Positions 42,582-64,000 of a stretch of DNA of 64,000 nt are shown in pieces. The position numbers and the translations under genes were made by a program. The stretch's first letter is position 1, and every line of letters starts with the position of its first letter. Under the pieces are notes generated by a model, which saw only the letters and a program-made list of their open reading frames with translations, ran no database searches and was not told the DNA's origin. Origin of the DNA: Alphaproteobacteria bacterium (GTDB lineage: Bacteria; Pseudomonadota; Alphaproteobacteria; UBA7887); contig CBDEUQ010000003.1 of NCBI GenBank assembly GCA_965243325.1, positions 30,508 through 94,507 on the forward strand. The letters run 5' to 3'.

Positions 42582-43131
42582 GGCCTTACCCTCCCTGGCG
42601 GCGCCCCCGGACCTTGCCGCCAAAGCCGCCGCGCCGCAAGACGCCGCCGCGGGAGCCCCCTGGACCCCGGATCGTCGCTCCGCTCCGTCCGGGGTGACAG
42701 GTGGGGGCGGGGTAGGCGCCGTTCATCCTCAACTGTCACCCCGGGCTTGACCCGGGGTCGCATCATACTGTAGCCAACTCCCGCCACCATCCGCCGTTCG
42801 GCGTCGAATGTATGATACAGCATTGTAATAGTTGACGATTTTCTGTCCTCCCCGGTTTCGCGGCCCTTGACTTGCCGCCAGATATCGCCTTCAATCGCCC
42901 CCGACTTGATGCCGCTCGCATACGGTTTGATGACTGGAATTCGCGGCAATTTTCGAGAGGGCGCGGCGAGCGCGCGAATCCCGGAAAACGCCCGTTCGGT
43001 CCCGCGGTGACGGAAGAGGAGGAAGAGGCCGGCGGCGGTTGGGGTGGATAGGCGGAGGCGGAGCCCGGAGTTGCCATCGACTTCCTCATCCTCGCCGTCC
43101 TTCGCACCAACGCCTTCGGGGAGAGAACACC

Positions 43132-44316
43132 ATGCCGAAACGGAGCACCCTCAGGCTGACCAAGCGGAGTGTGGACGCGCTCAGGCACGGCGGCAAGGAT
43201 GCGATCTTCTGGGACCGCGATTTGGCCGGCTTCGGTGTGCGCGTCCACGCCACCGGGCGCAGGCTCTGCATCGTCCAGTCGCGGGGGCCGACAGGCCTGA
43301 AGCGGGCCACCCTGGGGCCGGTCGGCGACAGGACCGTCGAGGAGTATCGCCGCGAGGCGGCGGCGGCCATCGACCGCATCAAGCGGGGCGAGGACCCGAG
43401 GCCGCCGGAGCCGGCGCCCGAGCCCACCGTCGCCGATCTGGCGGCGCTCTGCCTGAAGGACCATGTCGCCGCGCGCTGCAAGCCGGCGACGGCGGAGAAC
43501 TACCGGAAGTCCATCGACTGCCACATCCTGCCGGCGCTGGGGCGCAGGGCGTTGAAGGATGTGATGCCCGATGATGTGGCCAAGCTCCATCACCGGCTGC
43601 GCGGCACGCCGGCGGCGGCCAACCAGGCGATCTGGGTGCTCTCGAAGATGTTCTCGCTCGCCGAGAGCTGGGAGATGGTCCCGCCCGGGCGCAACCCGTG
43701 CCGGCATGTCCGCCACTACCGCGCCACACCCCGCGAGCGCTTCCTGACGCCGGACGAGTTCCGGCGCATCGGCGATGCGCTGAAGACCTTCGAGGACAAT
43801 GGCAAGATGCAGCCGTCGGCCATCGCGGCGATCCGCCTCTTGATGCTGACCGGCTGCCGCTCGGACGAGATCCTCACCCTGCAATGGGACGACATCGACC
43901 GCGCGGCGCGGGTCATCCGGCTCCGCGATTCGAAAACGGGGCCGCGCATGGTGCCGCTGACCGCGCCGGTGCTCACGGTGCTGGACCGCATCGAGCGGCA
44001 GGACGGCGTGCCCTGGGTCTTGCGGGGATCGAAGCCGAAGTCCCGTCTCACCTGCCTCTCCTGGCACTGGCGGAAGGTCAGGACGGCGACCGGGCTCAAC
44101 GACGTGCGGCTTCACGACTGCCGGCACAGCTACGCCAGCAGGGCGCTGGCGCTGGGCGAGGGTCTGCCGGTCATCGGGCGCCTGCTCGGCCATGCCAGGG
44201 TCGGCACCACCGCAAAATACGCCCACCTGGTGCGCGACGCCGAGAAGGCGGCCGCCGCCAGGACCGGCGGCAGCATCGCCGCCTGGATCATGCCCGGCGA
44301 CGCCGAGGCGGCGTGA
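43132..44316 (+). CDS. P4-type tyrosine integrase (DUF4102 arm domain plus catalytic domain), first of a tandem pair
   Basis: N-terminal ...LTKRSVDALRHGGKDAIFWDRDLAGFGVRVHATGRRLCIVQ... arm domain; catalytic HDCRHSYASRA...TAKYAHL (R-H-R-Y present). Confidence 0.85.
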   Translation: MPKRSTLRLTKRSVDALRHGGKDAIFWDRDLAGFGVRVHATGRRLCIVQSRGPTGLKRATLGPVGDRTVEEYRREAAAAIDRIKRGEDPRPPEPAPEPTVADLAALCLKDHVAARCKPATAENYRKSIDCHILPALGRRALKDVMPDDVAKLHHRLRGTPAAANQAIWVLSKMFSLAESWEMVPPGRNPCRHVRHYRATPRERFLTPDEFRRIGDALKTFEDNGKMQPSAIAAIRLLMLTGCRSDEILTLQWDDIDRAARVIRLRDSKTGPRMVPLTAPVLTVLDRIERQDGVPWVLRGSKPKSRLTCLSWHWRKVRTATGLNDVRLHDCRHSYASRALALGEGLPVIGRLLGHARVGTTAKYAHLVRDAEKAAAARTGGSIAAWIMPGDAEAA

Positions 44317-47094: not shown

Positions 47095-47439
47095 ATGAGC
47101 GCGGCATTCGCGATTCCCCGCAACACGGCCTCGACGTTCCTCACCCATTTCTTCGGCAGCGGCCTCTCCGACGACACCTATGTCGTGGAGCGGTTCAAGG
47201 CGATGGTGGACGGCGACATCCGCCGTTGCGCCGACCGGCAGCCCGCGGCGAAGACGGGTACGACGAAGACGGGCCGGCGCAAGACGAAGGACGCCACCGT
47301 CACCCGCAAGGCGGTGCAGGATCTGCGTCCGGCCCGCACCGAGATCATCGTCTGCACCGGGCTCAAGACCCGGGGCGGGGTGCAGATCTGGGGCGACATC
47401 GCCTGCGGACTTTTCCACGACCGCAAGCAGAAGGGCTGA
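47095..47439 (+). CDS. hypothetical protein (114 aa)
   Basis: In-frame ATG inside longer ORF 46585..47439; no recognised domain. Confidence 0.35.
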   Translation: MSAAFAIPRNTASTFLTHFFGSGLSDDTYVVERFKAMVDGDIRRCADRQPAAKTGTTKTGRRKTKDATVTRKAVQDLRPARTEIIVCTGLKTRGGVQIWGDIACGLFHDRKQKG

Positions 47440-47548
47440 CGGCTCCCTTCCCGGACGTCCTGCCGGCCCGGCGTCCCCGCCTCGGGGGCCGGGGCAAGCG
47501 GCAGGGCGTCCTTCCCTCCGTTTCGGTATCGGCAGGAAGGGGGTCGCC

Positions 47549-48154
47549 ATGGCTCGACGCGACATCGACGAGCGGCTGGACAGGCGGCGGCGGCGCAACC
47601 TGGACCGCTACCATCGGCGCGTTGCCGAACGCCGGGAGCGCGGCCTGTGCATCAAGTGCGGCCAGCGCCCGCCCGCGCCGGAGCGCAGCATCTGCGCACC
47701 CTGCGGCGAGAAGGCCAGGGCCTCCGAGCGTGCCCGCGCCGCTCGGCTCCGGGCCGAGGGCAAGCCGGTGCGCGATCCCGAAGCCAGACGCTGGGCCGAC
47801 CGCGAGCGCGACCGCCGCCAGCACGCCGAGCGCCGGGCCGCCGGCATTTGCGTCAAGTGCGGCCGGGTCCCGGCGCTCCCGGAGCGGACCCAGTGCGGGC
47901 CTTGCGCCGAACGGCGTCTGGCCGCCGACCGCGCCCGTCACGCCAGAGCGAGAGCCGAGGGCAGGCCGCCGCGCAATTCGGAAGCCAGTCGACTGGCCGA
48001 CCGCGAGCGCTGCCGCCGCCGTCGGGTCGAACGCCGGGCGGCCGGGCTGTGCATCCGCTGCGGGACCCTCTCGCCCGAAGCGGGTCGGTCGATGTGCGAG
48101 CCCTGCCGCGACGACCGGGATTACACGGTCAACTGCACGCTCAAGATGCGTTGA
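47549..48154 (+). CDS. Arg-rich protein with 3 tandem Cys4 zinc-ribbon modules (family member 1)
   Basis: RBS GGAAGGGGG. Three repeats of ...ERRxxGLCxKCGxxPxxPERxxCxPC...: CIKCG...CAPCGEK, CVKCG...CGPCAER, CIRCG...CEPCRDD. Lacks the C-terminal domain of members 2 and 3. Confidence 0.6.
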   Translation: MARRDIDERLDRRRRRNLDRYHRRVAERRERGLCIKCGQRPPAPERSICAPCGEKARASERARAARLRAEGKPVRDPEARRWADRERDRRQHAERRAAGICVKCGRVPALPERTQCGPCAERRLAADRARHARARAEGRPPRNSEASRLADRERCRRRRVERRAAGLCIRCGTLSPEAGRSMCEPCRDDRDYTVNCTLKMR

Positions 48155-48170
48155 GGGTCGGCGGTTTCGG

Positions 48171-48476
48171 GTGACGCACCCGTTTCATCCTCTTCACGGG
48201 CGCGAGTTCGAGCTGATTGAGAACTGGACGATCATGGGAGTGGCGTGGCTTCGATACCCAAGTGACGACGGGACGCTGCGCAGCATCCGACAGGCTTGGA
48301 CCAGCGTAGCGGACGAGGATCCGTTTGTGCGCGTGTCGGCGGGCCGGTCGGCGTTCCGCCTCTCGGACCTGTTTGCGCTGGCGGCATTGCTGGACAGCCT
48401 GGATGGGGACGACCGCACCGTGCGGGAGAACGATAACGGGGCGGAGACTGTCAAGGAGATTTTGCCGAATGTGTAA
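48171..48476 (+). CDS. hypothetical protein (101 aa)
   Basis: GTG start just after the stop of the preceding gene; no recognised domain. Confidence 0.35.
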   Translation: MTHPFHPLHGREFELIENWTIMGVAWLRYPSDDGTLRSIRQAWTSVADEDPFVRVSAGRSAFRLSDLFALAALLDSLDGDDRTVRENDNGAETVKEILPNV

Positions 48477-48583
48477 GAATGTTTTTGCACATAAACGGGG
48501 AATACAGGGCATCTTGACGGCCAGGAAGACGGCGTCTTCTGGCTATTATGTGAAGTATAGCATGGAGTTTCCGATCATAAAGA

Positions 48584-48620
48584 GGAAGAAAGGGGTTGAT
48601 ACGGCGTTGGGAATGTGCAT
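48584..48620 (+). promoter_or_regulatory. sigma-70-like promoter in an AT-rich patch upstream of the HTH - ORF - serine recombinase operon
   Basis: TTGATA-N17/18-ATAAAT/TAAATA inside a locally AT-rich about 180-bp segment that also holds the palindrome GAAGACggcGTCTTC (48519-48533). Confidence 0.4.
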
Positions 48621-48658
48621 AAATATACTTACATTCCTTTTCCGACGGAGCCCGCGCC

Positions 48659-49117
48659 ATGGCCAGACGCCCCGCCGACGCCAAGACCCGCGCCCTCAAG
48701 GAGCATGGCTGCCTGAACCCGAACGCGGAGGCGGTGCGCGACGAGCTGTTCGTGTCCAATGCGTTCTTCGACCCGCGCGATCTGCTCCAGGTCAAGTACG
48801 AGATGCTGCGCCGGGTGCGCGAAGACGGCGTGCCAGTGAGCCACGCCGCCGCCAGCTTCGGCGTCTCGCGGCCGACCTGGTATCAGGCGCAGCGCGCATG
48901 GGAGGCCGGCGGCCTGCCGGGCCTGCTGCCGGACCGGCCGGGACCGCGCCGGCCCCACAAGCTCAGCGACGAGGTGGTCGAGGCGCTGCGGGCGGCGAAG
49001 AGCGAACGGCCGGAGCTGACCGCCGCCGAGATGGTCGAGCTGGTGCGCGACCGCTTCGGCGTCTCGGTCCATCGCAGCAGCATCGACCGCGCCCTGGCGC
49101 GGGGAAAAAAACGATGA
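48659..49117 (+). CDS. helix-turn-helix protein with IS630/IS481-type winged-HTH N-terminal domain (no DDE domain)
   Basis: …AASFGVSRPTWYQAQRAWEAGGLPGLLPDRPGPRRPHKLSDEVVEALRAA...ELTAAEMVELVRDRFGVSVHRSSIDRAL... follows the HTH-tnp pattern; only 152 aa. Confidence 0.55.
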   Translation: MARRPADAKTRALKEHGCLNPNAEAVRDELFVSNAFFDPRDLLQVKYEMLRRVREDGVPVSHAAASFGVSRPTWYQAQRAWEAGGLPGLLPDRPGPRRPHKLSDEVVEALRAAKSERPELTAAEMVELVRDRFGVSVHRSSIDRALARGKKR

Positions 49118-49419
49118 CGATGCACAACCCACCCTGCACCGCGCTCCCGGCGGCGGAGCCTTCGGCCTACGGACAGGGGTACGAACGGATGCGCCGTCAT
49201 GCCGTCGAGCCCGGCGCCGTCCACGACCGCCACGGAAGCGGCGTGGTGGCGTTGCGCGGCGTCGCGGCCTGGCTGCATGCCTTCGCCGCGCTGCCCGCCC
49301 CGCCGGCGGCCGCGTGCGCGGGGGCCGCGCCCGGGCCGTTGCCCACCGGGGTCGAGACGTCGGCGATCGACATTCTGATCGCCATGCTCAACGGCCATAT
49401 GGAAGGAAAGCCGGCATGA
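49114..49419 (+). CDS. hypothetical protein (101 aa), translationally coupled between the HTH gene and the serine recombinase
   Basis: ATGA overlap at both ends (49114-49117 and 49416-49419). Confidence 0.45.
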   Translation: MTMHNPPCTALPAAEPSAYGQGYERMRRHAVEPGAVHDRHGSGVVALRGVAAWLHAFAALPAPPAAACAGAAPGPLPTGVETSAIDILIAMLNGHMEGKPA

Positions 49420-51437
49420 GCAGCGCCCATCAGAAGGTGGATACGGGCCATCTGAGCCGCGATGCCTACTTGTACGTGCGCCAGTCAAGCCTGCAGCAGG
49501 TGTTCGACCATGGCGAGAGCACGCGCCGCCAGTACGCGCTGCGGGAGCGCGCCGTGGCGCTGGGCTGGCCGACCGAGAACATCGTCGTGATCGACCGCGA
49601 TCTCGGCCTCTCTGGCGCCGACAGCGACCGCGAGGGGTTCCAGCACCTGGTCGCCGAGGTCGGCATGGGCCGGGCCGGCATCGTGCTCGGGCTCGAGGTC
49701 AGCCGTCTCGCGCGCAACTCCACCGACTGGCATCGGCTGATCGAGCTCTGCGCGCTGAGCGAGACACTGATCCTCGACGAGGACGGCGTCTACGATCCCG
49801 TCGACTTCAATGACCGGCTCCTGCTGGGGCTTAAAGGCACGATGAGCGAGGCAGAGCTGCACATGATGCGCGCCCGGCTGCGCGGCGGGACGCTCAACGC
49901 GGCCAAGCGCGGGGAGTTGAAGCTTCCTCTGCCGGTGGGGCTGGTCTACGACCCGCTCGACCAGGTGGTGCTCGACCCCGACGAACAAGTGCAGCACGGC
50001 CTGCGCCTGCTGTTCGACACCTTCACCCGGACCGGCTCCGCGCAGGCCACGGTGAAGCACTTCAACAGAGAGAAGCTGCTGTTCCCCCACCGTCCTCTCA
50101 GCGGACCGCAAAAGGGCGAGCTGCATTGGAAGCGGCTGAAGTTCTCGCAGGTGATCAACACGCTGCACAACCCGCGATACGCCGGTGCCTTCGCGTACGG
50201 CCGCACCCGGCGCCGCCGGCGGCCCGGCGGCGGTGTCGAGCACAGGCGCCTGGCGCGCGAGGAATGGACGGTGCTGTTGCGCGACGCGCACCCGGGCTAC
50301 ATCACCTGGGAGCGGTTCGAGGAGAACGAACTGCAACTCCGGAACAATGCGCAATCCTACGAAGCGAAGCGCCGCAGCCCCCCGCGCGAGGGACCGGCAC
50401 TGCTGCAGGGCCTGGCCATCTGCGGCGTCTGCGGCCGGAGCATGACGGTCCGCTACCGCACCCGTAAAGGACGGCAATATCCCGATTATGTGTGCCAGAG
50501 AGAAGGGATCGAGACAGCGAGCGGCAGCGTGTGTCAGGGCGTATCGGGCGGCGCCATCGATCGCGCGGTCGGCGAGCTGCTGGTGGAACTGGTGACACCG
50601 CTCACGCTGGACGTCGCGCTCCAAGTGCAGAACGAGCTCACGGCCCGCGCCGAGGAGGCCGATTTATGGCGTTCCCAACAGGTGCAGCGCGCCCGCGAGG
50701 AAGCGGACTTGGCGAGGCAACGGTTCATGCAGACCCATCCCGACAACCGGATGGTCGCCGACGTGCTGGAGGCGGAATGGAACGCGAAACTCCGGGCCCT
50801 GGACGAGGCGCAGCACGAGCTCGATCGCAGCCGCGCCGAGCCTGACCGGGGGTTGGACGATGAGCAACGAAAGCGAGTGCTTGAGCTGGCCAGAGACTTC
50901 CCCCGCCTGTGGAACGATCCGGCGACGCCGCACCGCGAGCGCAAGCGGATGGCGCGGCTGCTGATCGAGGACGTGACGCTGACCAAGGCCACGCGGAGCC
51001 TGGGAGTGCGCCTGCGCGGCGGCGCGACCAGAGAGCTCATCTGGACGCCGGATCCACGCGTGTATGAAATCCGCAGGACCAGCGATGAGATCGTTGCCGA
51101 GATCGACAGGCTGTTGGATGACCACACGGATGGCGAGATTGCGTCGATCCTCAATACGCGCGGATCCCGAACCGGGCATGGCCATGCCTTTACCCCGAAG
51201 CTGGTGACAGCAACCCGCCACAATCGGTCTCTCAGGTCACGCTACGAGCGGCTTCGCGATCGTGGGCTGTTGACGATCCATGAGGCCGCCGACCGGCTCA
51301 CCGTCTCGATCCGCACCATCAAAAAATGGCGCAGGGCCGGGCGTCTGCGCGGTTATGCCTACAACGACAGACCGGAATACCTGTTCGAGGTTCCCGATCT
51401 CCCGCCGACCAGGCAGGCAAGTCGATGCGGCCCGTGA
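49416..51437 (+). CDS. large serine recombinase (resolvase/invertase N-domain, recombinase domain, zinc ribbon, coiled coil)
   Basis: N-terminal YLYVRQSSLQQ...S...Q (catalytic Ser), ...GLKGTMSEAELHMMRARLRGG..., zinc ribbon LAICGVCGRSMTVRYR...YVCQ..., long C-terminal coiled coil; 673 aa. Confidence 0.85.
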   Translation: MSSAHQKVDTGHLSRDAYLYVRQSSLQQVFDHGESTRRQYALRERAVALGWPTENIVVIDRDLGLSGADSDREGFQHLVAEVGMGRAGIVLGLEVSRLARNSTDWHRLIELCALSETLILDEDGVYDPVDFNDRLLLGLKGTMSEAELHMMRARLRGGTLNAAKRGELKLPLPVGLVYDPLDQVVLDPDEQVQHGLRLLFDTFTRTGSAQATVKHFNREKLLFPHRPLSGPQKGELHWKRLKFSQVINTLHNPRYAGAFAYGRTRRRRRPGGGVEHRRLAREEWTVLLRDAHPGYITWERFEENELQLRNNAQSYEAKRRSPPREGPALLQGLAICGVCGRSMTVRYRTRKGRQYPDYVCQREGIETASGSVCQGVSGGAIDRAVGELLVELVTPLTLDVALQVQNELTARAEEADLWRSQQVQRAREEADLARQRFMQTHPDNRMVADVLEAEWNAKLRALDEAQHELDRSRAEPDRGLDDEQRKRVLELARDFPRLWNDPATPHRERKRMARLLIEDVTLTKATRSLGVRLRGGATRELIWTPDPRVYEIRRTSDEIVAEIDRLLDDHTDGEIASILNTRGSRTGHGHAFTPKLVTATRHNRSLRSRYERLRDRGLLTIHEAADRLTVSIRTIKKWRRAGRLRGYAYNDRPEYLFEVPDLPPTRQASRCGP

Positions 51438-51473
51438 CGAAAGCCGAAATCTGCCCCGGTGTTCGACGGAATA

Positions 51474-52355
51474 ATGGAGGTGCAGTATGCAGCATGCTTC
51501 CGGCGGGCCGCGAAACGCCTGCGCCGCGCCGAGCGCCGGGCCGCCGGCCTCTGCGAAACCTGCGCGGCGCCCGTGACCGGCAGGGCGGCCTATTGCGACT
51601 CCTGCGCCGCCGCCCGGAACGAACGGCGGCAGCGCAATCCGGAGCCGGCGCGCGAGGCCGACCGCCGACGCTATGCCGAGCGGCGCAAACGGGGCGACTG
51701 CACGAGCTGCGGCAAGCCGGTCCAGGGGACGGCCGAGTGCCGGACGTGCCGCGACGCTCACCGGGCACGCTACGACTCCCGCCGGGCCGCCGGGGTCTGC
51801 GTCAAGTGCCGGACCCCCACCGACGGCGGCGCGGCCTACTGCGATCCCTGCGCCGCCGCCAAGGCCGCGAGCCGCGACCGCGACCGCGCGGCGGAATACG
51901 CGGCCAGGCGCCGGCGGTATGCCGAACGGCGGGCGAAGGGGCGCTGCGTCGCGTGCAACGCGCCATCGCCGGACGCGGCGCGCTGCAAACCTTGTGCGGC
52001 CGTCAACGCCGGGCAGCGTGATCGTGAGGCGGAGAAAGCCGCCCGGCGCCGGCGGTATGCCGAGCGGCGGGCGAAGGGACGCTGTGTCGAGTGCGACGCG
52101 CCGTCGCCCGGGGCGGCGCGGTGCGAGCCCTGTTCCCTCCGGCACCGCGAGCGCTCGGGAGCGTTCCGCGGCATCCCGCTATGGGACCCGAGCTGGACGG
52201 TGATCGAGATCGCCACCGGGGTCTGTCACGGCACCTATGACAGCGAGATGGAGGTCGCGGCCTGTCTCGCCTTCGCCAGGCTCTCGCGCGACGAGGTCGA
52301 GGTGATCGCCGACGCCAGCCCGATGGCGGGTTTCATTGCGCCCGGTTGGCAGTGA
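51474..52355 (+). CDS. Arg-rich protein with 5 tandem Cys4 zinc-ribbon modules plus a conserved C-terminal domain (family member 2)
   Basis: Repeats RRRYAERRAKGRCVACNAPSP.AARCKPC... (the last two nearly identical at DNA level), then C-terminal ...FRGIPLWDPSWTVIEIATGVCHGTYDSEMEVAACLAFARLSRDEVEVIADASPMA... Confidence 0.6.
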   Translation: MEVQYAACFRRAAKRLRRAERRAAGLCETCAAPVTGRAAYCDSCAAARNERRQRNPEPAREADRRRYAERRKRGDCTSCGKPVQGTAECRTCRDAHRARYDSRRAAGVCVKCRTPTDGGAAYCDPCAAAKAASRDRDRAAEYAARRRRYAERRAKGRCVACNAPSPDAARCKPCAAVNAGQRDREAEKAARRRRYAERRAKGRCVECDAPSPGAARCEPCSLRHRERSGAFRGIPLWDPSWTVIEIATGVCHGTYDSEMEVAACLAFARLSRDEVEVIADASPMAGFIAPGWQ

Positions 52356-52425: not shown

Positions 52426-53574
52426 ATGACCGCGAAGGACATCGACACGCTGCGCGCCGAATATCGCGAACGCTACCACCGCCGCACCGCCGAGCGCCGT
52501 TCGAAGGGCCTCTGCGTGCATTGCGGCGAGCGTCCGCCCAAACCCGGCCGCAGCCGGTGCGAGCCGTGCGCGGCCAAGAAGCGGCCGGCCCACCGCGCCC
52601 GCTACCATCGCCGCACCGCCGAGCGCGTCGCGCGGGGGCTCTGCCCGAAATGCGGCAAGCGCCCGCCCGCGCCGGAGCGCAGCCAGTGCGCGCCCTGCCT
52701 GGAGAAGGACGCCGCCGCCGGCCGGGCCCGGGACGCGAGGCTCAGGGCCGCCGGCATCCCGCGCCGCGATCCGGCCAAGGCCGCCGAGTACGAGCGCGGG
52801 CGCAACCGCCGCCGGGCCGAGTACCGCCGCGCCAGGGGGCTGTGCGCCGCCTGCGGCAAGTCCCCGCCGGCGCCTGGCCGCGTGTCCTGCGAGCCGTGCC
52901 TGGAGACGCGCCGCGCGCAGGACCGCGCGAAATACGCGGCCGGCAAGGCGGCGGGCAAGCTCTACGGCGGGGCCGATCCCGAGGCTTGCCGCAAGGCCGC
53001 CCGCGCCCGCAGCCGGCGGCGGAGGAAAGCCTGGATCGAGGCCGGGCTCTGCGTCCGCTGCGGCGCGACACCGGAGGTCGAGGGCAGCACGAACTGCGAG
53101 GCCTGCAAGCAGAAAAGCCGGGCCAGGGGCCGCCGCAAATACGCCGAACGGCGCGCCGCCGGGCTCTGCACCAAGTGCGGAAGCCCCGCTTTCGACGGCC
53201 TGGCCTATTGCGGCGCCTGCGCCGCCATCCGCGAGGTCCAGCGGCCGCCGGAGGTCAAGAACGCCCAGTCCCGGCGGCGATACGCCGAACGGCGCGCCCG
53301 CGACCGGTGCACCGACTGCGGCGCGCCGTCCCAGGGCGCCTCGCGCTGCGTGCCGTGCGCGGAACGCTCGCACCACCGCTCGACATACTTCAAGGGCATC
53401 CCGATCTGGGACCCGAGCTGGACCGTGATCGAGATCGCCACCGGCGAGGCGCTCGGCACCTTCGACAGCGAGGCCGACGTGGCGCTCTGCCTCGCCTTCG
53501 AGAAGCTGGCGCGCGACCAGGTCGAGGTAATCGCCGACATCAGCCCGATGGCGATGCACACGAGCTGGACCTGA
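52426..53574 (+). CDS. Arg-rich protein with 7 tandem Cys4 zinc-ribbon modules plus the same C-terminal domain (family member 3)
   Basis: RBS AGGAAGGA; repeats ...RRTAERxxxGLCxxCGxRPPxPxRSxCxPC...; C-terminal ...FKGIPIWDPSWTVIEIATGEALGTFDSEADVALCLAFEKLARDQVEVIADISPMA... shared with member 2. Confidence 0.65.
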   Translation: MTAKDIDTLRAEYRERYHRRTAERRSKGLCVHCGERPPKPGRSRCEPCAAKKRPAHRARYHRRTAERVARGLCPKCGKRPPAPERSQCAPCLEKDAAAGRARDARLRAAGIPRRDPAKAAEYERGRNRRRAEYRRARGLCAACGKSPPAPGRVSCEPCLETRRAQDRAKYAAGKAAGKLYGGADPEACRKAARARSRRRRKAWIEAGLCVRCGATPEVEGSTNCEACKQKSRARGRRKYAERRAAGLCTKCGSPAFDGLAYCGACAAIREVQRPPEVKNAQSRRRYAERRARDRCTDCGAPSQGASRCVPCAERSHHRSTYFKGIPIWDPSWTVIEIATGEALGTFDSEADVALCLAFEKLARDQVEVIADISPMAMHTSWT

Positions 53575-57857: not shown

Positions 57858-59009
57858 ATGCGCATCTACGCCACCGTCAACGACCGGACCGCGCGCCGAA
57901 GTTTCAGGGAACAGAAACACCGCAAGCGCCCGCTGACCGTGCTGGACCATACGCTGCCCGCCTTCGGCTTCAACATCGCCGCCGACGATACGCGGACGTA
58001 TTTCGTCCGTGTCGTCCGCAAGCTGGGCGCGGACAACATCGCCCTCGGCAAGACCACGGAAACGACCGCCAACGAGGCGCGGGCGAAGGCCGTCACCGAG
58101 ATCGAGGCGGCGCAGGTCGAGCGCAAGGCCGGGCCGCTGATGCGCGACTTCGCCGACGAGTTCATCCGCCGCCGCGCCCATCGCTGGAAGCCGTCCACCC
58201 GGAAGAGCAATCTTTACCTGCTGGGGCGATACATCCTTCCCCCGCTTGGCGGACTGCGGGTCGCGGCGATAACCCGCGCCGACGTGCGGCGCTGGTTCGA
58301 TTCCATGAGCGGCACCCCCGGCGTCGCCAACCGCACCCTGCCGGTGTTGTCGTCGATGATGACCGCCGCCGAGCTTTGGGATATCCGGCCCCAGGGCTCC
58401 AATCCCTGTCGCAACATGCGCCGCTACAGGACCGCCCCGCGCGAGCGCTTCCTGTCGGCGGACGAGTTGAAGCGCCTCGGCTTCGTGCTCGACCACGCCG
58501 AGGACCGGCAGGCCGCCGCCGCGATCCGGCTGCTGCTGTTCACCGGGGCGCGGTCGTCGGAGATCGCCGGGCTCAGGTGGGACTGGATACGCGAGACCCG
58601 CGCGGTGCTGCCGGACTCGAAAACGGGGCCGAAGACGATCCAGCTTCCCGCGCCCGCGCGGGCCGTGCTCGCGAGCCTGCCGCGCGATGGCGCGTTCGTA
58701 TTTCCCAGCCGGAAGGGCGACGGGCCGATGGCCGACCTTGCCAAGCGCTGGCTCAAGCTCCGCGCGCTCGCCGGGCTGGAGGACGTGCGCATCCATGATA
58801 CCCGCCACACATACGCCTCCCATGCGGTGATGGGCGGCCTCGACCTCTACACCGTGGGCCGGTTGCTGGGCCATGCCGATACCGGCTCGACCGAGCGCTA
58901 CGCCCATCTTGCCGACGGGCATTTCCGCGAGGCGGCGGGACGGATTTCCGGGATCGTCGGTGGTGCGCTGGCCGGTGGCCGGAAGCGGGAGGCGGATCAT
59001 GGCGAATAG
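57858..59009 (+). CDS. tyrosine integrase with a divergent N-terminal arm region, first of the second tandem pair
   Basis: Catalytic domain with HDTRHTYASHA...TERYAHL; the N-terminus (MRIYATVNDRTARRSFREQKHRK...) is atypical or shortened. Confidence 0.75.
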   Translation: MRIYATVNDRTARRSFREQKHRKRPLTVLDHTLPAFGFNIAADDTRTYFVRVVRKLGADNIALGKTTETTANEARAKAVTEIEAAQVERKAGPLMRDFADEFIRRRAHRWKPSTRKSNLYLLGRYILPPLGGLRVAAITRADVRRWFDSMSGTPGVANRTLPVLSSMMTAAELWDIRPQGSNPCRNMRRYRTAPRERFLSADELKRLGFVLDHAEDRQAAAAIRLLLFTGARSSEIAGLRWDWIRETRAVLPDSKTGPKTIQLPAPARAVLASLPRDGAFVFPSRKGDGPMADLAKRWLKLRALAGLEDVRIHDTRHTYASHAVMGGLDLYTVGRLLGHADTGSTERYAHLADGHFREAAGRISGIVGGALAGGRKREADHGE

Positions 59010-60183
59010 GACCGGGAAGACACGGCTCAAGGTCGCGGCCATCGCCGCCGCGAGGCCGAAGGCGCGCGAATACACGCTCTGGGACGGAACGCTCAGGAGC
59101 TTCGGGCTGCGGGTCCAACCCTCCGGCGCGAAGTCGTTCATCGTCCAGACCCGCGCGCGGGGCCGGATGCGCAAGATCACGCTCGGGCGATTCCCGGACA
59201 TGAGCCTCGCCGACGCGCGCACGGAGGCCGCCGCTGTCCTCGCCCGTATCTGGGCGGGCGAGGACTTGGCCCCGCCGCGCAAGGTCAAGGCCCCCGTGTT
59301 CCGCGACTTCGCCGCGCGCTACCGGGAGCGGCGCAAGGACGTGTGGAAGCCGTCCTCGCTGGAGACCTTCGACATCTACATGCGAGGTCGGCTCCTGCCC
59401 GCCTTCGGACGGTTCAAACTCGACACCATCGACCATGCGCGGGTCTCGGCGTGGTTCGATGCGGCGAGCGAGGAGCGCCCCGGCGCGGCCAACCGGGCGT
59501 TCGACATCCTGCGCGCCATGCTCAAGACCGCGCGGCAGTGGGGCGAACTCGGCGAGCATGTCCCCGACGCCTGCGCCAATATCACGGTGAACCCGAAGAA
59601 GCCCGTCGCCCGCTATCTCGACAAGGACGAGATCGCCCGACTCGGCGCGGCGCTGGACCGGCACGCCGGGGACCGCCCCTGGCACGTGGCGGCGCTGCGC
59701 TTGCTGGCGCTGACCGGGGCGCGGCTCTCCGAAGCGGTCAACCTGCGGTGGGACGAGATCGCCGCCCTGTCCGAAGACGGCGCGAGCGCGCGCATCGAGG
59801 ACTCCAAGACCGGCCCGCGCACGATCTGGCTCGGGCCGGAAGCGGCGAAGCTGGTGGCGGCGCTGCCGCGCACGGGAGGGGCGGAGCGCGTGTTTCCCGA
59901 AAACCTTACCACGTCGAGGCTCTACGACTTCTGGTGCCGTGTCCGGGAGGAGGCGGGGCTGTCCGGTCTCCGCATCCATGACTGCCGCCACACATGGGCC
60001 TCGCAGGGCATCATGAACGGCGTGGGTCTCCCCACCGTCGGGCGGTTGCTCGGACACAGGCGGCTGGCCACCACCGCGATCTACGCCCATCTCGACGACA
60101 ACGCCTTGCAGGCTGCCGCCGAGAAGGCGGCGAGCCGAATCGCGAAGGCAATGGGGTTCGAAGCCGAGCCGTCACCGCTATAA
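58999..60183 (+). CDS. P4-type tyrosine integrase, second of the second tandem pair (overlaps the previous gene by 11 nt)
   Basis: …LKVAAIAAARPKAREYTLWDGTLRSFGLRVQPSGAKSFIVQ... arm domain; HDCRHTWASQG...TAIYAHL catalytic motif. Confidence 0.85.
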   Translation: MANRTGKTRLKVAAIAAARPKAREYTLWDGTLRSFGLRVQPSGAKSFIVQTRARGRMRKITLGRFPDMSLADARTEAAAVLARIWAGEDLAPPRKVKAPVFRDFAARYRERRKDVWKPSSLETFDIYMRGRLLPAFGRFKLDTIDHARVSAWFDAASEERPGAANRAFDILRAMLKTARQWGELGEHVPDACANITVNPKKPVARYLDKDEIARLGAALDRHAGDRPWHVAALRLLALTGARLSEAVNLRWDEIAALSEDGASARIEDSKTGPRTIWLGPEAAKLVAALPRTGGAERVFPENLTTSRLYDFWCRVREEAGLSGLRIHDCRHTWASQGIMNGVGLPTVGRLLGHRRLATTAIYAHLDDNALQAAAEKAASRIAKAMGFEAEPSPL

Positions 60184-60941: not shown

Positions 60942-62336
60942 ATGCGCATCGATTTTGTCCTTGCCTCTGCCGTGTTCATGGTTACCGCCTGCGGAGGTGG
61001 CGGAAGCGGAGGCAAGCTCGCCCAGATGACGCAACAGCCGGACGAGACTCCGGCTATGGTCGCTCCCACCAAAATCGCATTTGCTCCTTCCTCCAGCGGA
61101 CACTACAGGACGGACGGTCTGCCTGGACCGGCAATTTCCGACGCGAAATACATGCCAATCTATCGGGATGATGACCGTATTCTTGTCGGGGTCGAACAAA
61201 CTGCCAATTTTTTACGCAGCCTTCCAGTTATCGCCAAGACCGCGAGTGGCGCAGATATTCGATATGGAATTGTTGATGATGGCGCGGGCGGAAATATCGT
61301 CCGAGAATATCTCAATCAAGTAACCGATGTTCTATTTTCGCATATCGTTGGATTTGAATGGGACGGAAGACCGCAAGTAACTTATGGAGGACATGCATCT
61401 CCTGACGATGTGGAGCGTCTAATCCGTTCCATCCAGCTTGTGAACGTCGCTCTACCGGAATCGCGGAAAATGGAACTCCCTTCCGCGTCTCCCTATCCTT
61501 TGCCGCAAGGTCCCAACTCCGGCATTCATGTCTTTTTTCTCGATCCCGAAAATGATCCTGATTATTGGGGAATAACTTTCAACACGAGAAATGGAGATAC
61601 GCTAAAATCCAACATTTCCATCAGCGCGCATTACACCGATGCTGGTGATCGGCGAGCAACTATTCTACTGGCTCATGAGATTCTACATGCGTTGGGTCTT
61701 GGCGATCATGTTGCGGAATCCCACGATAGCATTTTGGAAGCGGGCAGGGGAATTTATGAGAGGCAACAGAACTCGCCGCAGCCATTGTCCTTGCTCTATA
61801 ACGAAGACCGCGAAGCGCTCCGGGGATTATACGATCCGTCACGATTGGGATCTTGGGCGAATACAGGTTTGCATATCGCCGGACACGGACAGCACACGGC
61901 CTTCGGCGTTGCGCTGCGCAACGGTTATGCCGAGCCATGGGCTTACGGCTATACGCCGAACAGCGACCTTGCCGATAATCGTAGCCTGTCCGGTTCGGTG
62001 AAATGGAGCGGCGAATTGCTCGGGTTGACCCCGGACGCGGCGGCTGTCGCGGGCGATGCTGCGATCAACGTCAATCTGCCATCCATGACGGGCCGGGCGG
62101 ACTTCACCAATCTTGAGACATGGGGCGGGAACACCGCGCCCGGCGCTGCCGGGAGCGGCGCGACATGGCTCGATGGCGATCTCGGCTATGGCATCGCCGT
62201 TCGCGGTAACACCTTCCGGGAGACCGGCGGCGATGACGGGCGCTTGACGGGCATATTCACCGGGCGCTCGCATGAAGGCGCGGCGGGTACGCTTGATCGC
62301 ACCGACCTTACGGCGTCGTTCGGAGCGTCGCGGTAG
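60942..62336 (+). CDS. lipoprotein with a zincin (HExxH) metalloprotease-like motif; lower GC than the backbone
   Basis: Lipobox MRIDFVLASAVFMVTAC; HEILHALGLGDH motif; Gly-rich beta-type C-terminal region ending ...TASFGASR. Confidence 0.5.
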   Translation: MRIDFVLASAVFMVTACGGGGSGGKLAQMTQQPDETPAMVAPTKIAFAPSSSGHYRTDGLPGPAISDAKYMPIYRDDDRILVGVEQTANFLRSLPVIAKTASGADIRYGIVDDGAGGNIVREYLNQVTDVLFSHIVGFEWDGRPQVTYGGHASPDDVERLIRSIQLVNVALPESRKMELPSASPYPLPQGPNSGIHVFFLDPENDPDYWGITFNTRNGDTLKSNISISAHYTDAGDRRATILLAHEILHALGLGDHVAESHDSILEAGRGIYERQQNSPQPLSLLYNEDREALRGLYDPSRLGSWANTGLHIAGHGQHTAFGVALRNGYAEPWAYGYTPNSDLADNRSLSGSVKWSGELLGLTPDAAAVAGDAAINVNLPSMTGRADFTNLETWGGNTAPGAAGSGATWLDGDLGYGIAVRGNTFRETGGDDGRLTGIFTGRSHEGAAGTLDRTDLTASFGASR

Positions 62337-62544
62337 CACATGATTTGTTTTGCCAGTCGTCCTGGCGCGTCGCAAGGGCGGCGGATGGCGTGGGCGCAGA
62401 AAGCCGCATTCGCCGCTCCCTGCTGAGCGCAACATGTAGACCGAAATCGAACGACACCGCTAAACGCCCTTCGCACGGGCTGGTCACGATCTACAAATCC
62501 TCTCGGCAACGGCCCGTGTTGCGCTGGACAGGTGCCATTAACAC

Positions 62545-63429
62545 CTACTCAATTGGAACAACGTTGAAATTTCCATCAAATCCCAGTTTTACCGCTGGCT
62601 CCTTCATGATCTTCAGGAAATTCTCCATTTCGTCACATTCGGCCAAGAGGTCATCTAGAATTTTCATGTAGTACTTCGACTTCTGACTCGCCACTTCGTC
62701 AGAAGCTGGTGCCTGAGAATTGATCTTTTCCTTGTACGAATTTATCCACGTGCGAACTATATCCAGATTACGCTTACACTTCTCGGGTTCAGAGATGTTT
62801 GCCCCGGCAACATTCGTCAATTGCTGAAAAGGAAACAGTACAGTTACTTCGCAGGTGGAATCTACCCTGGCCATTCTATCAAACATCTCTCCGACACATG
62901 AATCTGTTTCTTCTCGTATGTATCGCACAACCTTCGGATCGACTTCAACAAACGGCGTGGCTCCATCGTTCTCAGACATGCGGAACGCTCGAACTGACTT
63001 TTCTCCCGTTAGCGCATTCTGATAACCAGCGCCTATAAACTGTTCATCGCTGTGAAAAATGCTACCTCTTGTAATATAGCCTCGAACCATGACGCCGAAT
63101 TCCAATAAACCGATAATGGACTGCGATATGTGTTCAATCAGATTGATTATCCCCGCTGGGGAAATCTCCGTAGAGATGATGGCGCAGTCTGATATCTGTG
63201 TGACCCTGTAGTCCAAGTCGCGGCTTTCGTGCCGACTCTCGGGACAAATGATTGGTCCATAAGCAGCAATAGATTGAACATGTGACTTGGATTCCAGCTC
63301 TGCACAGATTGCAAGCAGATCGGTCAGGCGGTCGCCACTACCACCTTCGGCGGCTTCTACCTTGGATTTGAATCCAAGTATGTCCACAAAGGCCACGAAT
63401 TTATCGCGAAATTGCGGTTCGAACGTCAC
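62545..63429 (-). CDS. class III nucleotidyl cyclase-like (adenylate/guanylate cyclase fold) protein, low GC
   Basis: FVAFVDILGFKSKV (cf. hhFxDIVGFT), QISDCAIIST (cf. IGDxhhh), MVRGYITRGSIFH...FIGAGYQNALTGEKS (cf. RIGIHTGPV...GDTVNLASRLE). GC falls to roughly 45% by eye. Confidence 0.45.
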   Translation of the reverse strand: MTFEPQFRDKFVAFVDILGFKSKVEAAEGGSGDRLTDLLAICAELESKSHVQSIAAYGPIICPESRHESRDLDYRVTQISDCAIISTEISPAGIINLIEHISQSIIGLLEFGVMVRGYITRGSIFHSDEQFIGAGYQNALTGEKSVRAFRMSENDGATPFVEVDPKVVRYIREETDSCVGEMFDRMARVDSTCEVTVLFPFQQLTNVAGANISEPEKCKRNLDIVRTWINSYKEKINSQAPASDEVASQKSKYYMKILDDLLAECDEMENFLKIMKEPAVKLGFDGNFNVVPIE

Positions 63430-63442
63430 GGCGTTATTGTTC

Positions 63443-64000
63443 CTATCGTTTCAGTGGTACGGCGCTCTCGCTCATGGCCAGCAGCGTAGCGAGAGCTTCA
63501 TCCTCGGAAATCCCCGCTTCCCATCCATAGGCCGCAGCAACGGCGCCGTCCAGCGTAGCGTGCGCATCCGAGAGCCATTGCGGGCGGGTATTGTAGAGGT
63601 TCGTGAGCGTCCGGGCCTTGAGTTCCTTCGCCGCCGCCTCATCGCGCGCGACCGGGCGCTTCGGATAGCCTGGCGCCGGCTCGTCCACCCACTCGACCCA
63701 CTCCGGCGGGTTGAGCCAGCGGTCGCGGAGTTCCACCAGTCGCCGAGCGGCATCGGCTATGGCGACGGCGCGCGGCTCATCCGCGTAGTCGGCGGCGGGG
63801 ATGTTCGGCGAGAGACCGTCCGGGAAGGGGAAGGTCTCGAAGGTGGTGGTCGGCGTGTAGCGCGGCCGATCCTCAAGGCTGGTGCCGAGCCGAAGCGACC
63901 ATGCCTCGTGGAACCGGCTGTGCAGGATGCCGAAGGTCACATCGTCGTCGCGGGCGATGACGATCACTTGGCTGTCGGGCAGGACGCCCGCGTCGAGCCA
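63443..64000 (-). CDS. C-terminal part of a large SAM-dependent DNA methyltransferase (type IIG / PglX-like family); N-terminus beyond the window
   Basis: …ILHSRFHEAWSLRLGTSLEDRPRYTPTTTFETFPFP..., ...TLTNLYNTRPQWL...LDGAVAAAYGW... are blocks I associate with the C-terminal region of MmeI/PglX-type methyltransferases. The ORF is open to the window edge. Confidence 0.45.
   Translation of the reverse strand, partial: WLDAGVLPDSQVIVIARDDDVTFGILHSRFHEAWSLRLGTSLEDRPRYTPTTTFETFPFPDGLSPNIPAADYADEPRAVAIADAARRLVELRDRWLNPPEWVEWVDEPAPGYPKRPVARDEAAAKELKARTLTNLYNTRPQWLSDAHATLDGAVAAAYGWEAGISEDEALATLLAMSESAVPLKR

Follow-up and report, generated by a model that had tools for sequence, protein, structure and literature searches.

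Transposons moved by a large serine recombinase (LSR) have been described from clostridia. Tn4451/Tn4453 (recombinase TnpX), Tn5397 (TndX) and transposons of the Tn6104 type share 2 bp with their targets and produce no target duplication, and in Tn4451 the joint of the circle creates the tnpX promoter and thus couples expression to the excised state. A locus of related interest is found in a 64,000-nucleotide stretch of DNA (hereafter the window) from an alphaproteobacterium of the GTDB lineage UBA7887 (contig CBDEUQ010000003.1, positions 30,508 to 94,507), where a gene of the family DUF5372, a gene for a helix-turn-helix (HTH) protein, a small open reading frame (ORF) and an LSR gene follow one another. 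It is likely that window positions 48115-51503 are one copy of an autonomous element, similar to an insertion sequence (IS), which transposes through site-specific recombination by its LSR and whose DUF5372 gene is restored when the two ends are joined.

The 2-bp repeat of the TnpX-type transposons flanks the element on either side and recurs in the joint of the circle and in the empty site (PMC3158075), and the title of Lyras et al. (2004), as it stands in the references of the same paper, describes TnpX alone as sufficient for transposition. The element shares with the clostridial transposons its movement by an LSR, the common 2 bp and the lack of target duplication. However, those moved by TnpX and TndX are larger and carry cargo and mobilization genes, whereas the element is a bare 3.4 kb with three conserved accessory genes. 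Their recombinases contain DUF4368, for which the window LSR has no Pfam match, and their target dinucleotide is GA, while the cores of the element are CG, TT, TG, AC, CT, AG or TC. With no DUF4368, no cargo and other cores, the element falls outside the TnpX/TndX group, from which it also differs in targeting specific coding motifs. The joint restores the coding sequence of an accessory protein in the element and the recombinase promoter in Tn4451.

The IS607 family comprises compact insertion sequences with a serine recombinase, which also cause no target duplication. Their TnpA is small and shows little target specificity; its MerR-like HTH is N-terminal and its catalytic domain C-terminal. 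In contrast, the window LSR has an N-terminal catalytic domain (residues 17-167), a far C-terminal HTH_17 domain and specific targets, which places the element outside this family. In the fdxN element of Anabaena, a single-copy developmental excision element, the LSR XisF works with two small accessory proteins, XisH and XisI. XisF (NF041201) is the best NCBIfam match of the window LSR (E 8e-26), but its 90.9 bits lie below the equivalog cut-off of 375, and the accessory proteins of the element have no XisH or XisI domains in Pfam. The IS110/IS1111 elements are site-specific, target conserved repeats, have a circular form and use its joint for expression. Their recombinase is a DEDD enzyme guided by a bridge or seeker RNA, while the enzyme here is an LSR; a scan of 47900-51700 found no Rfam family, although no search aimed at a novel guide RNA was made. 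Phage serine integrases (A118/LI, Bxb1, phiC31, SPbeta SprA/SprB) have the same architecture of catalytic domain, recombinase domain and zinc ribbon, likewise use a pseudo-palindromic attP whose half-sites measure about 22-25 bp, integrate inside coding sequences and have their orientation set by a dinucleotide (PMC3783163). Unlike them, the element is IS-sized and multi-copy, and its LSR has an extra C-terminal excisionase-like domain. Searches of the open literature, with subscription papers and ISfinder outside their scope, returned no description of the element or of DUF5372. Judged from sequence, the locus appears to represent a widespread family of elements that is undescribed in the searchable literature and inserts, for the most part, into genes for the transposases of other mobile DNA. 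Its unusual features are the accessory genes, the targeting of transposase motifs and a gene that integration appears to split.

Extent, ends and targets of the element

The element, its main parts and the host gene that it interrupts lie in the window as follows.

48115..51503, forward strand: whole mobile element, 3389 bp, comprising the DUF5372 body, promoter spacer, HTH gene, small ORF, LSR gene and both ends
48115..48138, no strand assigned: left end (P' arm), with core CCGG at 48115-48118 (putative crossover CG at 48116-48117), a 13-nt spacer at 48119-48131 and ACTGCAC at 48132-48138
48117..48476, forward strand: body of the DUF5372 gene (PF17342), its 5' end open to the element boundary; 124 amino acids when right and left ends are joined
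48659..49117, forward strand: HTH gene, 152 amino acids, two HTH units of the IS481/IS630 N-terminal type, no catalytic domain
49114..49419, forward strand: small ORF, 101 amino acids, conserved, predicted helical, outside known families
49416..51437, forward strand: LSR gene, 673 amino acids, with catalytic domain (S24), recombinase domain, zinc ribbon (C336/C339/C360/C373) and C-terminal excisionase/MerR-like HTH (about 552-649)
51476..51503, no strand assigned: right end (P arm), with GGAGG Shine-Dalgarno at 51476-51480, GTGCAGT at 51480-51486, ATG at 51487-51489 and core CCGG at 51500-51503
47180..48114, forward strand: 5' part of the interrupted host gene, a zinc-ribbon repeat protein whose frame resumes at 51504
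51504..52355, forward strand: 3' part of the host gene, continuing the zinc-ribbon repeat gene

The extent of the element is apparent from three loci (L001, L002 and L003) of one alphaproteobacterial metagenome-assembled genome (MAG; CBDEUT01), which equal window 48115-51503 at 100% identity over exactly 3389 bp, while their flanks are unrelated to those of the window or just 80-96% alike. The window therefore holds at least a fourth copy. Six other multi-copy genomes show sharp repeat boundaries enclosing 3.35-3.40 kb, the element being multi-copy in about 10 other genomes and also in NGR234, and its size is constant at 3.3-3.4 kb across phyla. Many homologue contigs are 3.3-3.9 kb long, as expected of a collapsed repeat. 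None of these short contigs showed terminal overlap when checked, and thus none is a circular assembly. The element contains no phage or conjugation genes. With defined ends, 3389 bp, four genes, no cargo and at least four identical copies (the window and L001-L003), it answers to the definition of an insertion sequence. A first-pass annotation of the locus, made from the sequence alone, had missed both the upstream DUF5372 gene and the element ends.

The right end of all copies reads ...GAG-GTGCAGT-N13-core4 and the left end core4-N13-ACTGCAC, with the inverted-repeat motif at the same distance from the core in about 60 distinct copies. Joined, the ends form a symmetric site of about 48 bp, GTGCAGT-N13-core4-N13-ACTGCAC, with half-sites of about 22 bp, and so resemble the pseudo-palindromic attP of serine integrases (PMC3783163). 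Only the central two core bases are common to both junctions and the target, and there is no target duplication; the strands are probably exchanged at exactly these 2 bp. This dinucleotide is TT in most of the family and CG, TG, AC, CT, AG or TC in the clade of the window, whose own copy has the palindromic CG within CCGG. Copies with a TT core always lie antisense to the host gene. In contrast, copies with a CG core are found either way round at one and the same protein position of paralogous hosts, L001-L003 being reversed relative to the window. The orientation of serine-integrase recombination is set by the central dinucleotide alone (PMC3783163, citing Ghosh et al. 2003). The palindromic CG would thus account for identical copies in both orientations.

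In phage A118, the outer motif of attB is shifted inward by 5 bp. A corresponding check for a shift of the ZD motif between attP and attB found GTGCAGA 3 bp closer in the targets of L008 and L010, but not in that of the window. A second attP-like sequence, GTGCAGG-N13-CCGC-N13-TCTGCAC, lies 0.8 kb to the left at 47314-47357 (two mismatches; 0.03 expected). It was set aside as probably a chance match, because similar sporadic matches occur in other loci.

Joining the flanks restores the host reading frames. The window flanks give the open ORF ...CEPCRDD|RRAAKRLRRAERRAAGLC... (host peptide CEPCRDD|RRAAKR), and L010 has a counterpart of this target that no element interrupts, GAGGA-CCGG-CGGCAGGCGAAACGC. 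In five reconstructed hosts, drawn from different lineages, the restored gene encodes an rve-family transposase (IS481-like, IS3, rve_3, IS21/Mu-C and Mu-like), and the junction coincides with the point where the rve core ends. Of 62 distinct left flanks, the TT core accounts for 40, and 31 of these 40 encode the host peptide [N/K]-x-x-x-E, examples being NGxxER, KGKVER and NAxxESFF. This TT is complementary to the first two bases of the codon for Asn or Lys. Siting in the rve motif is also seen in pNGR234a (ISNCY, PQAK|GRVER), pSymA, Streptomyces (beside istB), Paraburkholderia and Rhodococcus. The family seems originally to have targeted the part of rve-type DDE transposase genes that codes for the catalytic motif N/K-G-x-x-E.

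The empty site deduced for pNGR234a (250 bp + TT + 250 bp) has a single contiguous match, at 95-98% identity, in 124 plasmid records, and wherever the listed records are annotated the match lies in an ISNCY transposase. The 3320-bp element of pNGR234a, a plasmid of Sinorhizobium fredii NGR234 (NC_000914.2, 33951-37270), recurs on pNGR234b at 100% identity. Together, the 124 contiguous empty sites and the identical second copy are direct evidence of a discrete, precisely inserted element.

The clade of the window sits instead in zinc-ribbon repeat genes (repeat RRxxYAERRAxGxCxxCG) of genomic islands, to which it appears to have moved from the ancestral rve target. Besides the interrupted gene (47180-48114 and 51504-52355), the window has an intact gene of this kind at 52426-53574; neither belongs to a Pfam family. 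Their products combine many copies of RRxxYAERRAxGxCxxCG...CxPC with a conserved C-terminal GIPxWDPSWTVIEIATG...DEVEV..D.SPM domain. In islands, such genes adjoin SSB, YAcAr and tyrosine integrase genes, and in several MAGs they are where the window clade prefers to insert. Conserved coding targets of a third class are seen in a Spirochaetia MAG (L057-L059), where a TT-core element lies in HNH-endonuclease-like genes at ...V|KRxVWxRDGGRC....

The distribution of the element was surveyed in one genome per species, in which 133 LSR relatives were found, and gene order was compared in 80 loci, of which about 70 are complete, the others being cut by contig ends. The order DUF5372-HTH-small ORF-LSR is kept in essentially every complete locus, with LSR identity down to 55%. 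This bears out the suggestion of the first-pass annotation that the HTH protein and the small ORF are dedicated partners of the recombinase. The order spans more than 10 phyla, and the lineages include Alpha-, Gamma- and Deltaproteobacteria, Chloroflexota, Acidobacteriota, Gemmatimonadota, Spirochaetia, Planctomycetota, Nitrospinota and Actinomycetota. DUF5372 (PF17342) alone forms 1447 clusters at 50% identity, which indicates a large family. Among cultured strains, the element is carried by rhizobia, Burkholderia, Streptomyces, Paraburkholderia and Rhodococcus. On pNGR234a the four genes are annotated as a DUF5372 family protein, a helix-turn-helix protein, a 'transposase' and a recombinase family protein. 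All four are also annotated on the Burkholderia and Rhodococcus plasmids, while the LSR gene is fragmented or missing on those of Streptomyces and Paraburkholderia. The pSymA plasmid of S. meliloti matches the element in a record that carries no annotation. A megablast search of plasmids with the element gave no match, these relatives having surfaced by protein search only.

Many of the host MAGs (L001-L080) bear names of sponge symbionts (Poriferihabitaceae, Spongia_Bin9, COS/RHO bins). LSR identity among these sponge-associated hosts is 60-85% even though they represent more than 10 phyla, which, for a single habitat, suggests recent spread between phyla. In the MAG CBDEUP, three loci (L010, L024 and L030) share 100% identical stretches of 6-7.5 kb, flanks included, and a neighboring 4.4-kb segment is inverted between loci. 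These features point to larger duplications or inversions around the element.

A DUF5372 gene probably split by integration

The DUF5372 assignment is secure at the level of Pfam (E 8e-21, 74.3 bits against a gathering threshold of 25, profile positions 1-77 of 78). In the integrated element, the frame is open to the left end with no consistent start there, and the sole internal in-frame start in the window, GTG 48171, has no Shine-Dalgarno sequence. When ends are joined, 29 of 31 distinct combinations yield an ORF of at least 100 codons that runs from a right-end RTG (behind GAGG, after GTGCAGT) into DUF5372. The products are 101-124 amino acids long with a constant 24 residues ahead of THPFHP, the spacing from joint to THPFHP varying by whole codons only. 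Among 28 distinct joints compared in a census, none had a stop in frame 0, and the right-end RTG behind GAGG was the only universal in-frame start. Codon 24 is GTG in 16 of these joints and GTA, ATA, ATT, ATC or GTT in the other 12, and it almost never has a Shine-Dalgarno sequence. The residues E18, R20/R21, F22 and R23 of the joint ORF are kept through synonymous codon changes. Additionally, in 37 of 60 distinct integrated copies the host supplies no in-frame start, and several of those also lack an internal one. In an AlphaFold2 (AF2) model, DUF5372 is predicted to form an SH3-like barrel that includes strands encoded upstream of GTG 48171, or codon 24. Database gene calls for DUF5372 place 0 to 100 residues ahead of HPFHP, raggedness that is expected of a gene without a start of its own.

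A natural counterpart of the joined ends is found on the 958-bp metagenome contig L088, which encodes a 102-residue DUF5372 protein (P0501, MKHAPSTTVSTAARPGEVTGPVRV-THPFHP...). The contig carries an LSR C-terminus that is 41% identical to window LSR residues 498-660 (E 2e-33), followed by GAGGTGCAGT-ATGAAGCATGCAC-CTTC-GACCACGGTATCA-ACTGCAG, DUF5372 and the direct-repeat motif described below. Its joint thus reads GAGGTGCAGT-ATG...CTTC...TCAACTGCAG and then DUF5372; it aligns without gaps with the right end of the window element joined to the left, and the LSR stop overlaps the DUF5372 start as ATGA. The joined form therefore exists in nature, as a circle or as a head-to-tail tandem.

At two other loci (L083, 5001-5330; L089, 585-893), the antisense of the target motif provides an in-frame ATG and an N-terminus (MASRPW... 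and MIRRRHW...). These mimic the joint-encoded MKRSPW..., and the target arm resembles the right arm of the element. A giant protein of 2691 amino acids (P0368) has 15 separate DUF5372-like stretches and so forms a tandem array of the SH3-like domain, while the DUF5372 proteins of the element are single-domain. A role for DUF5372 as a partner of trios of tyrosine recombinases was also considered and rejected, every context examined carrying an adjacent HTH gene as well as an LSR; contexts without an LSR were decayed copies or contig ends (L083, L085 and L089).

Recombinase, accessory proteins and promoter region

The three downstream ORFs lie where the first-pass annotation had placed them, with ATGA overlaps at 49114-49117 (HTH gene and small ORF) and 49416-49419 (small ORF and LSR gene). 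At the stop of the HTH gene, ATGA or GTGA is kept in 48 of 59 distinct modules.

The profile searches that had been proposed found the expected domains in the LSR: a catalytic (Resolvase) domain (PF00239, E 4e-19, residues 17-167), a Recombinase domain (PF07508, E 5e-14) and a Zn_ribbon_recom zinc ribbon (PF13408, E 1.5e-8). Residues Y20, R22, S24, Q28, D60, D62, G64, S66, R72, E94, S96, R97 and R100 are invariant in 30 LSR sequences, as are C336, C339, C360 and C373 of the zinc ribbon. Since R22, S24, R97, R100 and the four cysteines are all retained, the enzyme is presumably not catalytically dead, an outcome that the first-pass annotation had left to alignment. The LSR matches the phage integrase family phrog_95 (E 6e-53). 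The nearest solved structure, though distant in sequence, is the SPbeta prophage integrase SprA (E 4e-10), with an alignment of low identity that spans residues 62-493 and includes the coiled-coil region of SprA. Residues of about 552-649 form a conserved excisionase/MerR-like HTH (HTH_17, TIGR01764, phrog_66). Such a domain is unusual for serine integrases and could serve as a built-in directionality or arm-binding domain.

The HTH protein matches HTH_32, HTH_23, HTH_28 and HTH_29 of Pfam. It covers only profile positions 2-107 of the IS630 and IS481 transposase models, with scores of 62.2 and 55.5 against cut-offs of 100 and 224, respectively, and neither Pfam nor NCBIfam finds a DDE domain in it. 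Its description as an IS630/IS481-type HTH domain that lacks the catalytic part is thereby upheld. The protein shares homology with the DNA-binding N-terminus of IS481-type transposases (35% identity, E 9e-10). It is the most conserved of the four element proteins and is 88-93% identical between copies with different crossover dinucleotides and targets, while the recombinase, zinc-ribbon and C-terminal domains of the LSR diverge more than its catalytic domain. For this reason the HTH protein is unlikely to choose the target, and the targeting role once suggested for it is disfavored; a regulatory or directionality role is possible.

The small ORF has no match in Pfam, NCBIfam or PHROG. It encodes a conserved protein of about 100 amino acids with 25 invariant residues over 37 homologues. 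Its AF2 model is poor (pLDDT 64.6), and a comparison of this low-confidence model with folds in the PDB gave no match. Scans of the four proteins against Pfam, NCBIfam and PHROG recognized no known directionality factor. The candidates for such a factor are the HTH protein, the small ORF, DUF5372 and the C-terminal excisionase-like domain of the LSR itself.

The region between DUF5372 and the HTH gene has three further features.

48477..48658, forward strand: AT-rich spacer, 182 bp, 47% GC, with a promoter-like box, a conserved TTTACA-type box and the Shine-Dalgarno sequence GGAG at 48647-48650
48450..48490, no strand assigned: direct-repeat pair at the 3' end of DUF5372, GTCAAGGAGATTTTGCCG at 48450-48467 and GTAAGAATGTTTTTGCAC at 48473-48490; a candidate protein-binding site
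48520..48544, no strand assigned: palindrome GAAGACggcGTCTTC (48525-48539) within the hairpin GCCAGGAAGAC-ggc-GTCTTCTGGC; not conserved among relatives

With about 70% GC around it, the spacer is the AT-rich patch of roughly 180 bp seen earlier. The promoter recognized there was correctly located, but its register is TTGATA (48596-48601)-N16-CATAAA (48618-48623) rather than TTGATA-N17-ATAAAT, and with 9 of 12 consensus matches 'near-consensus' overstates it. A strict consensus scan for promoters and terminators made no call, the window promoter included. As a consensus, the family has TTGACA-N16-[C/T]ATAAT at a fixed 28-41 nt upstream of the HTH gene, with at least 9 of 12 matches in 42 of 52 distinct spacers. 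This conservation of position and sequence makes the window promoter credible. The direct repeats, of the form GTxAAG-N3-ATTTTGCCG, are kept as DNA even where the DUF5372 ORF stops earlier, and they are also found in L083 and L088. The palindrome is real as DNA but, by comparison with relatives, probably not a functional part. The repeated TGCACATAAA-like words are likewise real, one belonging to the conserved direct-repeat pair and the other to the -10 region. Overall, the conserved parts of the spacer are the promoter, the Shine-Dalgarno sequence and the direct repeats, and its middle cannot be aligned.

Proposed mechanism, alternatives and significance

The following mechanism is proposed. 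The LSR would excise the element as a circle of 3.4 kb, which would re-integrate by attP x attB exchange at the central dinucleotide. The internal promoter would drive the HTH gene, small ORF and LSR gene as a translationally coupled operon. In the circle, transcription would cross the joint, where the right-end Shine-Dalgarno sequence and ATG would start the DUF5372 frame. Full-length DUF5372 would then be made from the excised form only, integration splitting its gene after codon 5. The protein would most likely be a state sensor that biases the recombinase toward integration or shuts the operon down, and the HTH protein, the small ORF or both may act as regulator or directionality factor. 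The joint expected in the window, from 51503 to 48115, would read ...GCATGCTTCCGGGATTACACGG... and the empty zinc-ribbon target ...CGCGACGACCGGCGGGCCGCG..., while the expected pNGR234a joint is ...GGTGCATCGTGATGTCCGCTCC-TT-CTTTCAAGTCCAGGACTGCAG....

A more far-reaching interpretation is offered tentatively, with some doubt. It holds that these elements form an unrecognized LSR-driven IS family that parasitizes other transposons and senses its own state through the integration-split DUF5372, a circle-only protein that switches between excision and integration. As part of the same tentative proposal, the family homes to the DNA for the catalytic-glutamate motif of IS3, IS21, IS481, ISNCY and Mu-like transposases and can be retargeted through the core dinucleotide and arms, as in the clade of the window.

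Several points weigh against the proposal that the window holds a mobile element with a joint-restored DUF5372. Neither a circle nor an empty site was seen for the window's own genome, and the single joint contig, only 958 bp long, belongs to another lineage and may represent a head-to-tail tandem instead of a circle. Two joint patterns run against JGI metagenome contigs, and one joint and one right-end pattern run against IMG/VR, found no joint. As the joint patterns demanded A[AC]TGCAC, the ACTGCAG variant of L088 would have escaped them, and IMG/VR probably lacks the family, as the right-end pattern also had no match there. Codons 14-24 of the joint ORF show no excess of variation at third positions, so selection on this peptide is weak or masked by constraint on the DNA. 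The GTG found at codon 24 in 16 of 28 joints is a usual start for gene callers. Finally, given the low-confidence model of the small ORF and the generic SH3-like fold of DUF5372, the roles assigned to the accessory proteins follow from logic only.

Some of these points would suit a mobile element in which DUF5372 is an ordinary gene translated from its internal start (GTG 48171), the open frame across the joint being a by-product of recombinase-binding DNA and L088 a tandem or an assembly artefact. Most database entries are indeed called as 101-residue products from (M)THPFHP. In addition, the RTG and part of the GAGG lie in or beside GTGCAGT, so their conservation could serve DNA binding, and the antisense target can mimic the N-terminus, as in L083 and L089. 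This explanation is nevertheless unlikely. It does not fit the 12 joints without GTG at codon 24, the near absence of a Shine-Dalgarno sequence there or the several intact integrated copies with no in-frame start at all. It also leaves aside the synonymous changes that preserve F22 and R20/R21/R23 upstream of codon 24, the predicted placement of these upstream residues in barrel strands, a joint-to-THPFHP spacing that is constant but for whole codons and the ATGA overlap in L088.

The remaining explanations differ as to what the LSR acts upon. An invertible phase-variation cassette, in which the LSR flips 48115-51503 and thereby fuses or unfuses the halves of the zinc-ribbon gene with start signals of the element, would agree with the opposite orientation in paralogous contexts (window and L001-L003), with CCGG at both ends around a palindromic dinucleotide and with an ORF at the right end (51459..52355) that shares its frame with the 3' part of the host gene. 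It is nonetheless very unlikely, because orientation-blind integration suffices for four copies at different paralogous loci, most of the family has a non-palindromic TT core and fixed orientation, and the polymorphism that marks the family is one of insertion (empty sites in 124 plasmids) rather than inversion. Inversion in place through attL x attR is physically possible as a side reaction with the CG core. The first-pass annotation had regarded the three-gene operon as a second recombination system of the surrounding island. The operon would then be an invertase, resolvase or second excisionase acting on island repeats such as those at 55.9-56.1 kb. The module does lie in an island bounded by tyrosine integrase genes (43039-44316 and 57858-60183), with SSB and YAcAr nearby, and the repeat-rich site exists. 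However, these repeats have nothing in common with the element ends, the 3389-bp unit is identical elsewhere while the surrounding island is only 80-96% alike or unrelated, and the four-gene unit stands alone in transposase genes of unrelated bacteria. An accessory system of this kind is highly improbable, and the unit is better described as an independent 3389-bp element nested in the island. A decayed prophage or an integration remnant of an integrative and conjugative element, immobile on its own, is scarcely credible. The matches to phrog_95 and SprA would be in keeping with it, but four 100% identical copies with sharp identical boundaries, the constant size across phyla, the lack of phage or conjugation genes, the intact ORFs and the conserved catalytic residues all speak for a mobile element.

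Besides the tyrosine integrase gene at 43039, with which it starts, the island contains genes for DUF3800, SSB and YAcAr and two further integrases. The genes of these two stand back to back with a slight overlap (57858-59009 and 58873-60183). Beyond about 61 kb (61000-64000), GC drops to 0.52-0.59, suggesting either the edge of the island or a further foreign segment. The window contains no tRNA gene.

LSR-based transposable elements are known from only a few clostridial transposons, and a compact, widespread and multi-copy LSR element would add an insertion-sequence family. It would also account for the four proteins, which have stood in annotation without a function ever since pNGR234a was sequenced. 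Insertion into the codons for a transposase catalytic motif would mean that one mobile element disables, and possibly rides on, another. The element occurs in model rhizobia, and because 100% identical copies are present in NGR234, it is directly testable there. The natural variation of dinucleotide and target within one close family would provide a ready series for studying and engineering the site choice of serine integrases. Moreover, a coding sequence that is whole in the excised circle only would be a simple physical switch, which could answer how directionality is controlled in LSR elements.

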